Source of the DNA: Escherichia phage CharmingMan
Sequence record: PP925830.1
Reading direction: 5' to 3' (one strand)
DNA length: 40,665 bases
The translations under genes and the position numbers were made by a program. The notes below the pieces were generated by a model. That model saw only the letters and a list, made by a program, of their open reading frames with translations. It made no database searches and had not been told where the DNA came from. The first letter of the stretch is position 1; each line of letters opens with the position of its first letter. Shown one piece after another: positions 525-990 of the stretch.

Positions 525-548
525 TAAAAAAGCCGCGCTATGGCGGCT
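525..548 (-). terminator. Hairpin plus T-run on minus strand (AGCCGC-N6-GCGGCT then TTTTTTATT)
   Basis: Forward 526-531 is an A-run followed by GCCGC (532-536) / GCGGC (543-547); on the minus strand this is a stem followed by 6 T. Sits 16 nt upstream of the GTG at 510. Confidence 0.35.
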
Positions 549-668
549 ACTGTCTGAATATCAGGGTGTTGCTTCGCGTTAACCCTGGTTAAGGTAAGCA
601 TTCAGCCCGTCAGTGGTGGGACACTGGCGCATTCAATGCGGAGGGATGGCTGATTACCTTCGATAAGG

Positions 669-935
669 ATGTACTTAATGGATAATAATGAATTATTTGA
701 TAAGTTGTTCACCTTGGAACTACAGGTTGGTTTTCTTATCCCTAAAATGATAAAGGTGCTTGATGGGTTAGCAGGGGATAATAAGGCGTCCACTTACCTG
801 ATTGCCGAAATGGAAAATATCATTAAACAACTGCCAAATACCAAAGCATCGCATGATGACAGGTTCACTAAGGCAGCTGAGGATGCCTTGGCAACGGTGA
901 AGCGCTCTTTAGACAAGCAGCCCAATCAAGAATAA
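669..935 (+). CDS. Hypothetical small protein, opposite-strand AT-rich moron (true start may be ATG 678)
   Basis: 88-codon ORF on the strand opposite all neighbours, visibly AT-rich, AAGGA upstream, followed by a hairpin + T-run at 958-990. No recognisable motif, no signal peptide. Confidence 0.4.
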   Translation: MYLMDNNELFDKLFTLELQVGFLIPKMIKVLDGLAGDNKASTYLIAEMENIIKQLPNTKASHDDRFTKAAEDALATVKRSLDKQPNQE

Positions 936-957
936 ATTCTTTTAACTCATTTATTTC

Positions 958-990
958 AAGCGTCTCTTTTTTATGAGGGGCGCTTTTTTT
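958..990 (+). terminator. Rho-independent terminator after the 669-935 gene
   Basis: AAGCGTCTC (958-966) pairs with GAGGGGCGCTT (975-985) with two G-U pairs, loop about 8 nt, then T-run to 990. Confidence 0.45.

Follow-up and report, generated by a model that had tools for sequence, protein, structure and literature searches.

A mobile reverse-moron cassette with a conserved upstream block in Escherichia phage CharmingMan

What is a short, AT-rich gene on the plus strand doing between two glycosyltransferase genes that are read from the minus strand? The question is raised by positions 496-1052 of a 40,665-nucleotide stretch of Escherichia phage CharmingMan DNA (sequence record PP925830.1), which is referred to here in its whole length as the window. 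The genome is lambdoid and HK97/HK633-like, and its minus strand encodes the replication, Q, lysis and virion genes. A preliminary description, made from the letters of the window, had read the gene as a moron. This reading was supported, and as a moron the gene is ordinary. The non-coding part upstream of it is, as judged from sequence, a conserved and family-defining element, which links the gene to the 'reverse morons' of HK97, HK022 and ES18.

The best explanation, for which we estimate a probability of about 0.6, is that 496-1052 form a mobile reverse-moron cassette composed of a fixed chassis and a swappable cargo gene, the cargo being expressed in the prophage and silenced by convergent late transcription. 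Comparison with related loci demonstrated the cassette structure, the mobility, the orientation bias and the selected RNA hairpin. It likewise demonstrated the order of the parts: a minus-strand terminator, an upstream region with the pattern TAnnnT and a leader of about 75 nt, then a Shine-Dalgarno sequence (SD), the cargo open reading frame (ORF) and a plus-strand terminator. The features are as follows.

496-1052, no strand: inserted cassette, 557 bp relative to phage Fostie (flank alignment, junction reading, GC content)
525-548, minus: predicted intrinsic terminator at the left end of the cassette (stem 548-531, TTTTTT down to 525)
550-564, plus: conserved dyad CTG-N9-CAG (left arm 550-552, right arm 562-564)
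569-595, plus: promoter-like region (TTGCTT 569-574, 15-bp spacer, TAAGGT 590-595)
600-677, plus: conserved structured 5' leader (helices P1 and H2, possible P3, SD AAGGA 665-669)
678-935, plus: cargo gene, 85 aa, phrog_18136 (PHROG match, homologue starts, SD)
868-1041, minus: possible late-strand forward ORF, 57 aa (SD AAGGAGG), overlapping the last 68 nt of the cargo gene
958-992, plus: predicted intrinsic terminator of the cargo gene (11-bp stem 958-985, then T7)
1-513, minus: small glycosyltransferase gene, downstream flank, continuing at 40665-40588 (phrog_854, E 9e-63)
1054-2526, minus: large glycosyltransferase gene, 490 aa, upstream flank (phrog_1579, E 1e-250)

Judged by its sequence, the gene adds a new cargo to the reverse morons of the HK97 gp23 type, a group annotated since 2000. 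What appears to be new is a covarying 5' leader together with a promoter block common to many unrelated cargos, for which no description was found in the papers searched; none of these contained 'reverse moron', HK022 srb in this sense or the leader sequence. The gene alone is one more small moron, and the value lies in the chassis attached to it.

The inserted cassette and its cargo gene

The limits of the insert were determined by comparison with phage Fostie, in which the two transferase genes overlap by 16 bp and nothing lies between them. Window positions 213-495 aligned with 2814-3096 of the Fostie locus (L001), and 1053-1300 aligned with 3095-3342. Since the flanks align to adjacent Fostie positions (3096 and 3095), the insert is 496-1052, and the junction was read directly as ...AAACATAAGTGA, insert, AAGTTTGTGGTGGTC. 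In both Fostie and LMessi, the two flanks were matched and the insert was absent. The GC content was 40.7% in the cargo gene and 42.9% in the insert, compared with 56.1% and 55.1% in the flanking genes, in line with the AT-richness reported earlier. The moron architecture proposed in the preliminary description was thus borne out by a junction that is empty in a close relative, deviant GC content, a predicted terminator of its own, a promoter-like region and an orientation antisense to the late operon; the flanks that it had called transferase-like both belong to PHROG glycosyltransferase families. The insert also brings a new SD and start codon to the small transferase gene, and these lie in DNA common to HK633 and SaltyDalty.

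An ORF of 88 aa had been assigned to 669-935 on the plus strand. The ORF is present in the sequence; its start, however, was replaced. The five full-length close homologues (83-85 aa, exactly 85 in four) all start at the ORF's fourth residue, and the match to phrog_18136 (E 1.7e-39) places ORF residues 4-88 of 88 on profile positions 3-87 of 87. ATG 678 has AAGGA 8 nt upstream, an SD that ATG 669 overlies. From the homologue starts, the PHROG start and the SD position, the gene is therefore 678-935 and encodes 85 aa. The predicted protein is acidic (pI 5.1) and soluble, with no membrane-grade hydrophobic stretch and no hydrophobic N-terminus. Consistent with the earlier remark that the product has no signal peptide or lipobox, it contains no Cys, and its top 19-residue hydrophobic window has a Kyte-Doolittle (KD) value of 1.39. 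Structure prediction, proposed earlier as a check, gave three helices with AlphaFold2 (six-sequence alignment) and no confident model, the mean predicted local distance difference test (pLDDT) score being 61.7.

The preliminary description had considered that the ORF might not be maintained among relatives. It is kept: homologues with 65-89% identity were found in Salmonella, Citrobacter, Enterobacter and one metagenome contig, and 48 of the 85 alignment columns are invariant, which indicates at the sequence level that the cargo is a maintained gene. The family is small, comprising six 90%-identity clusters; a profile search of 1.8 billion representatives returned nine 50%-identity representatives, all from this same family, and none of 50,697 phage records gave a significant tblastn match to the cargo. 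In Salmonella, the gene is placed between tail genes M and L or immediately follows the tape-measure gene; in Enterobacter kobei, it is flanked by the same two transferase genes; and in Citrobacter, it lies beside the holin gene. The family thus occupies four different prophage positions, always with the same leader and always antisense to the late genes.

The structured leader and the signals around it

The RNAalifold consensus of the leader consists of helix P1, in which 602-607 pairs with 648-653, stacked on helix H2, in which 608-615 pairs with 622-629. Over 66 sequences, H2 was 98.3% paired and showed three compensatory pairs with both sides changed. When the partner columns were slid, the pairing fell to 28-51%. 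For P1, H2 and P3 together, none of 500 shuffles reached the observed covariation score or the observed count of double changes. Across all loci, the central stem of H2 occurs as CAGUG/CACUG, CCAUG/CAUGG, UGAUG/CAUCA, CUGUG/CACAG and CGGUG/CACCG, that is, in at least five distinct compensated stem sequences, and this pattern of substitutions indicates that H2 is kept by selection on an RNA. U.G and G.U pairs are frequent in H2 and would become C.A or A.C mismatches on the other strand. Since the wobbles fit the plus strand only, the structure is assigned to the plus-strand RNA, i.e., the predicted cargo mRNA. Helix P3 (639-644 with 657-662, GGAGG-like versus CCUC-like), for which pairing reached 83% and some double changes were seen, is tentative.

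A covariance model built from 66 distinct leaders scored 84.4 bits at window positions 600-682 and found no second copy in the window. The same model gave 61.5 bits for HK97, 95.4 for HK022 and 83.6 for ES18, and 61-100 bits for nearly all other copies, with one divergent Escherichia coli copy at 40 bits. No leader was found in the Qin prophage of E. coli K-12. With the gathering thresholds of Rfam 15, nothing was matched in the window, the leader included; at permissive thresholds, weak matches to the L20 leader, GibS and isrK appeared, mostly reflecting terminators. A leader peptide was considered for the mini-ORF at 646-666 (ATG GCT GAT TAC CTT CGA TAA, MADYLR), the ATG of which (646-648) is present in 69 of 74 leaders, with MADYL and a stop as the commonest form. 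It was rejected, as its length is not conserved, ranging from 5 codons to open read-through, and its variable positions are non-synonymous.

Upstream of the leader, the hexamer at 590-595 was compared over 98 distinct upstream regions. The first T was kept in 84, the A in 95 and the last T in 85 of the 98, while the middle positions and the spacer vary; in sequence terms, this TAnnnT pattern is the signature of a -10 element. Because the hexamer ends 7 nt before the first conserved base of the leader, the transcription start is predicted at about 600-604, which falls at the foot of helix P1. In the same 98 regions, the arms of the CTG-N9-CAG dyad, located about 38-52 bp before the leader begins, were conserved at C 80, T 84 and G 84 on the left and at C 83, A 83 and G 96 on the right. 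Known sites were compared with these elements by eye. A LexA box was rejected because the dyad is one bp too short; sites for CRP, FNR, Cra and PhoP did not fit in spacing or half-sites; and the conserved positions did not fit sigma-54, sigma-S, sigma-E or sigma-28 promoters. Altogether, the promoter is a plausible but weak one that may require a factor.

The cassette is bounded by two predicted terminators. The minus-strand one, which precedes the start codon of the small transferase gene by about 12 nt, has a 6-bp stem with five GC pairs (z = -2.4). It is kept in most homologous cassettes, with the compensatory stems GCCGC/GCGGC versus GCCAC/GTGGC, and is absent from cassettes that abut an endolysin start; the records of HK97 and ES18 list the homologous hairpin as a putative terminator. 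The hairpin had been described earlier as a feature separate from the gene. It exists, but as the conserved left end of the mobile cassette that holds the gene. The plus-strand hairpin and T-run, also noted in the preliminary description, were recovered with a folding energy of -15.4 kcal/mol (z = -4.3), equalled by none of 200 shuffles, and the stem AAGCGTC/GACGCTT is retained in homologues despite different loops. A generic scan detected 4 terminator-like sites, compared with 2.8 in shuffled sequence. Since this count is near the shuffled level, the real support for both terminators is conservation with compensatory changes, and both are predictions backed by the stems of relatives.

The left part of the cassette could instead produce a minus-strand small RNA from about 599 to 526, resembling IsrK of Gifsy-1 and acting in trans or antisense to the cargo promoter. 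The isrK family (RF01394, an Hfq-binding small RNA) is likewise prophage-borne, with a small hairpin and a terminator, and Rfam gave a weak minus-strand match to it at 599-526. The region combines the hairpin CAGGGT/ACCCTG with single-stranded sequence and a U-tailed terminator. Membership in the family was rejected, as the score of 15.8 bits (E 0.72) is far under the gathering score of 50. Moreover, many cassettes, namely the Pantoea/Erwinia type, have no CAGGGT/ACCCTG hairpin and endolysin-adjacent cassettes have no terminator, yet the leader is kept in both. No conserved minus-strand promoter was seen in the region, and the H2 wobbles would be mismatched on that strand. We regard such a small RNA as very improbable.

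Spread of the chassis and exchange of cargos

Window positions 515-669 were 77-94% identical to non-coding DNA upstream of small reverse genes in other phages, namely HK633 gp65, SaltyDalty CDS0018, mEp213 and mEp043 gp72, ES18 gp25, HK022 gp23 and HK97 gp23, with further matches in Oslo, SPN3UB and 29485. Behind this block, the encoded proteins differ in their PHROG (18136 here; 21164, 10490 and 6806 elsewhere). Part of the block was present in 225 of 5,426 complete E. coli genomes, often between the endolysin gene and a DUF1327/YdfR gene, and a degenerate pattern found at least 120 matching stretches in IMG/VR. In a search of one genome per species, the genuine matches were all from Enterobacterales, with the leader in Enterobacter, Citrobacter, Pseudocitrobacter, Kluyvera, Leclercia, Buttiauxella, Atlantibacter, Dryocola, Pantoea and Erwinia; matches in unrelated taxa were judged to be chance from the organism titles, the Enterobacterales matches alone being examined. 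Thus, a chassis of about 150 nt that can be searched by sequence finds reverse accessory genes in more than 100 Enterobacterales phages and prophages.

The cargo behind the leader is diverse. The 75 distinct proteins downstream of it fell into 18 BLAST clusters, corresponding to at least 18 unrelated families, which include DUF1883 proteins and a zinc-ribbon protein. The usual cargos have 60-100 aa. At one locus (L070, leader 3908-3992), the cargo is a 268-aa PD-(D/E)xK nuclease that is NucC-like (PADLOC PD_DExK, E 2.7e-26; NucC, E 9.8e-14; Pfam DUF6602), by its family match an effector of a kind seen in defence systems. In many relatives, both transferase flanks and the leader are common, and divergence is complete from about 670 to about 1035-1058. 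The orientation of the cassette is strongly biased: the downstream neighbour ran opposite to the cassette in 91 contexts and with it in 2, and the upstream neighbour ran opposite to it in 47 and with it in 1. Both neighbours of the present cassette lie on the minus strand.

The record IMGVR_UViG_2551306125_000013 (L029) is 82-91% identical to the window and carries a different, DUF1883-like cargo of 87 aa at the same site. Some phages contain two leader-cargo cassettes at a distance of 2-4 kb, as in L030 (2243-2325 and 4295-4377), L033 (4340-4422 and 6469-6552) and L086 (312-395 and 4436-4520). The second copies in L030 and L033 were missed by the search pattern and recovered only by the covariance model.

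The sharp cargo boundaries admit a different explanation, in which the upstream block acts above all as a recombination linker, a homologous 'boundary' through which phages would exchange cassettes, and the ORF is a passenger of little or no function, so that the identity among copies reflects recent spread and not regulation. In its favour, cargo exchange has its breakpoints precisely where the leader ends (about 669) and at about 1035-1058; many loci have a second conserved junction, which encodes MTLEQRVEALEK, at the other end; and the leader is 80-94% identical across phages that are otherwise mosaic. However, the retention of H2 through at least five compensated stems with wobbles that suit the plus strand alone points to selection on RNA, variation spares the -10-like positions but not their neighbours, and the cargo, with its 48 invariant columns, is 65-89% identical across four genera. 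A linker role and a regulatory role are also compatible with each other. The purely passive version is therefore considered unlikely.

Proposed expression in the lysogen and the converging strand

For the mobile cassette with a prophage-expressed cargo, the following course of expression is proposed. While the late operon is silent in the prophage, the cargo would be transcribed from its own promoter, starting at about 600-604, and the paired 5' end formed by P1 and H2 might stabilise the mRNA or control its translation. The plus-strand terminator would block antisense read-through into the large transferase gene in the lysogen, and the minus-strand terminator would keep late-strand transcription that is not antiterminated out of the next lytic gene. 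During lytic growth, the Q-modified polymerase would pass both terminators and cross the cassette on the other strand, and this opposite-strand transcription may lower cargo expression by polymerase collision or duplex RNA. Analogy with other cargos and with Tai suggests that the protein would most likely be of use to the lysogen in phage exclusion, in defence or in modulating the host.

A related arrangement has been demonstrated by experiment for taiEcA/atiEcA of phi80, a 'noncontiguous operon': the lysogen produces TaiEcA, and Q expression lowers its amount (PMC11364771); tha/ith of 80alpha is a second defence module of this type (PMC11087260). The cassette resembles Tai/Ati and Tha/Ith in the proposed switch between lysogenic and lytic expression by convergent transcription. 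As with Tai/Ati, the reverse gene lies within the late operon; the small forward partner is here only a possible ORF. Tai is a 26.1-kDa protein in its FLAG-tagged form, compared with 85 aa here, and the cargo gave no match in the PADLOC library of 2023, which predates Tai. Phi80 was not among the leader matches. Since Tai offers an analogy and a nuclease cargo is found behind the same leader, a role of the cargo in phage exclusion or defence is the leading guess, to which we would give no more than about one chance in three.

Several points weigh against this course of expression. The promoter is weak on paper, with TAAGGT as the -10 and a sole TTG-type -35 at a 15-bp spacing, and a generic promoter scan of the window did not flag 569-595. 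The dyad hints at dependence on a factor; constitutive expression in the lysogen is therefore not assured. The search patterns fixed the P1 sequence, so that covariation in this helix is uninformative; in one pattern-independent copy, P1 contained a C-to-U change that kept a U.G pair. The cargo had no significant match in Pfam, the 2023 PADLOC library or the PDB sequences, and the structure model is of low confidence. Furthermore, the TaiEcA amount in phi80 was level after mitomycin induction, and silencing was seen only with Q overexpression (PMC11364771).

On the late strand, the possible forward ORF (1041-868) begins right after the stop codon of the large transferase gene. We considered whether the two converging ORFs form a pair, in which the reverse gene encodes an effector in the lysogen and the forward ORF, expressed with the late genes, neutralises it in the manner of Ati and Tai. 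A forward ORF with an SD lies in the same frame relative to the cargo in 4 of 4 contexts of the phrog_18136 family, and most other cassettes have a clear forward partner, which is a DUF1327 protein, an HK97 gp22-like protein of about 110 aa or a member of the MTLEQRVEALEK family. Between the partners in L012 and L020, four of the first 11 codons differ by eye, with three silent differences and one amino-acid change, and phi80 provides a precedent. However, the forward ORF has no family match in Pfam, PHROG or PADLOC, and partner and cargo do not strictly co-vary. Its N-terminus is like the start of the unrelated HK633-type partner, its middle is antisense to the terminator and its end is antisense to the cargo, a composition from which it may be a chimeric relic that constraints on the opposite strand keep open. 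The pair is given a low probability.

Many forward partners open with the same residues, about 12 in number (MTLEQRVEALEK), and then diverge completely. The prefix was found in L012, L020, L025, L027, L041, L044, L048, L075, L105, L109 and other loci, on the late strand beyond the 3' end of the cargo, and at some loci it precedes a DUF1327 start in the same reading frame. It resembles a second conserved junction of the cassette. In HK633 (L002, about 1971-1636, minus strand), an unannotated ORF of 111 aa (MISYEVEFPT...FTLEGYKQRAE...) with a good SD converges on gp65; it has homologues in many relatives and resembles the HK97 gp22 region.

The closest known relatives of the cassette are the genes labelled 'reverse moron product' (HK97 gp23), 'srb' and 'moron gene product' (HK022 gp23) and 'possible moron' (ES18 gp25) in their records. 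About 150 nt upstream, comprising the terminator, the promoter-like region and the leader, are homologous among them with 77-86% identity; all are antisense within the late genes, with a cargo of 70-100 aa that converges on a small forward gene, here a possible ORF. In contrast, the cargo proteins are unrelated and belong to different PHROGs, and the site is between two glycosyltransferase genes near the packaging end here and between tail genes I/J or M/L in HK97, HK022 and ES18. These annotations reportedly trace to Juhala et al. 2000 and Casjens et al. 2005.

The cassette also resembles the classic morons, lambda bor and HK97 gp15, in being extra DNA with an own terminator and deviant GC content in the late region. 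The position of lambda bor had been invoked in the preliminary description, and the comparison held for position and orientation, since bor is also reversed and lies between the lysis and packaging genes (PMC3594210). It failed for the product, which is unrelated to Bor/Iss. Unlike the Bor/Iss lipoproteins and the membrane protein gp15, the cargo has no signal peptide, Cys or membrane helix, and no sequence similarity to them. E. coli NRG857C carries both an iss gene and a leader-type reverse gene, each in a module of its own.

More broadly, the chassis might be an undescribed cis-regulatory RNA and expression chassis that marks a cargo-swap hotspot within late operons of enterobacterial lambdoid phages, the small reverse genes, this 85-aa cargo among them, being a little-explored pool of prophage-expressed anti-phage or host-modulating functions, many with a late forward gene as an off-switch. 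We put this forward tentatively and hold it to be doubtful as a whole. If true, the chassis would be a direct handle to find and express accessory and defence genes of prophages and a simple test system for the silencing of accessory genes by phages in the lytic cycle, and a candidate structured 5' leader absent from Rfam would be added.

The surroundings of the cassette gave some further observations. The window is a circular permutation that is cut within the small glycosyltransferase gene, which runs on the minus strand from 513 to 1 and resumes at 40665-40588. The last 25 codons lie there and encode ...ERHPDSAPRTERRRAWRLA*, a match to the C-terminus of the Fostie homologue. Because of this permutation, the 'first 12 kb', in which the cargo gene had been called the only plus-strand gene, is an arbitrary frame. 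The statement itself is consistent with the annotation of SaltyDalty, where all genes of the homologous 9.7 kb lie on the late or early-right strand apart from the reverse moron of that phage and a single ORF called on the wrong strand. A plus-strand ORF of 193 aa at window positions 1-582 is the shadow of the minus-strand small glycosyltransferase gene; its equivalent in SaltyDalty is the wrong-strand CDS0017 ('hypothetical protein'), and the transferase itself is uncalled there. Upstream of the large transferase gene, the 312-aa gene at 2527-3465 on the minus strand gave a weak match to phrog_13555 (unknown function), and its C-terminal part gave a sub-threshold match to the Phage_Tail_Tip domain.

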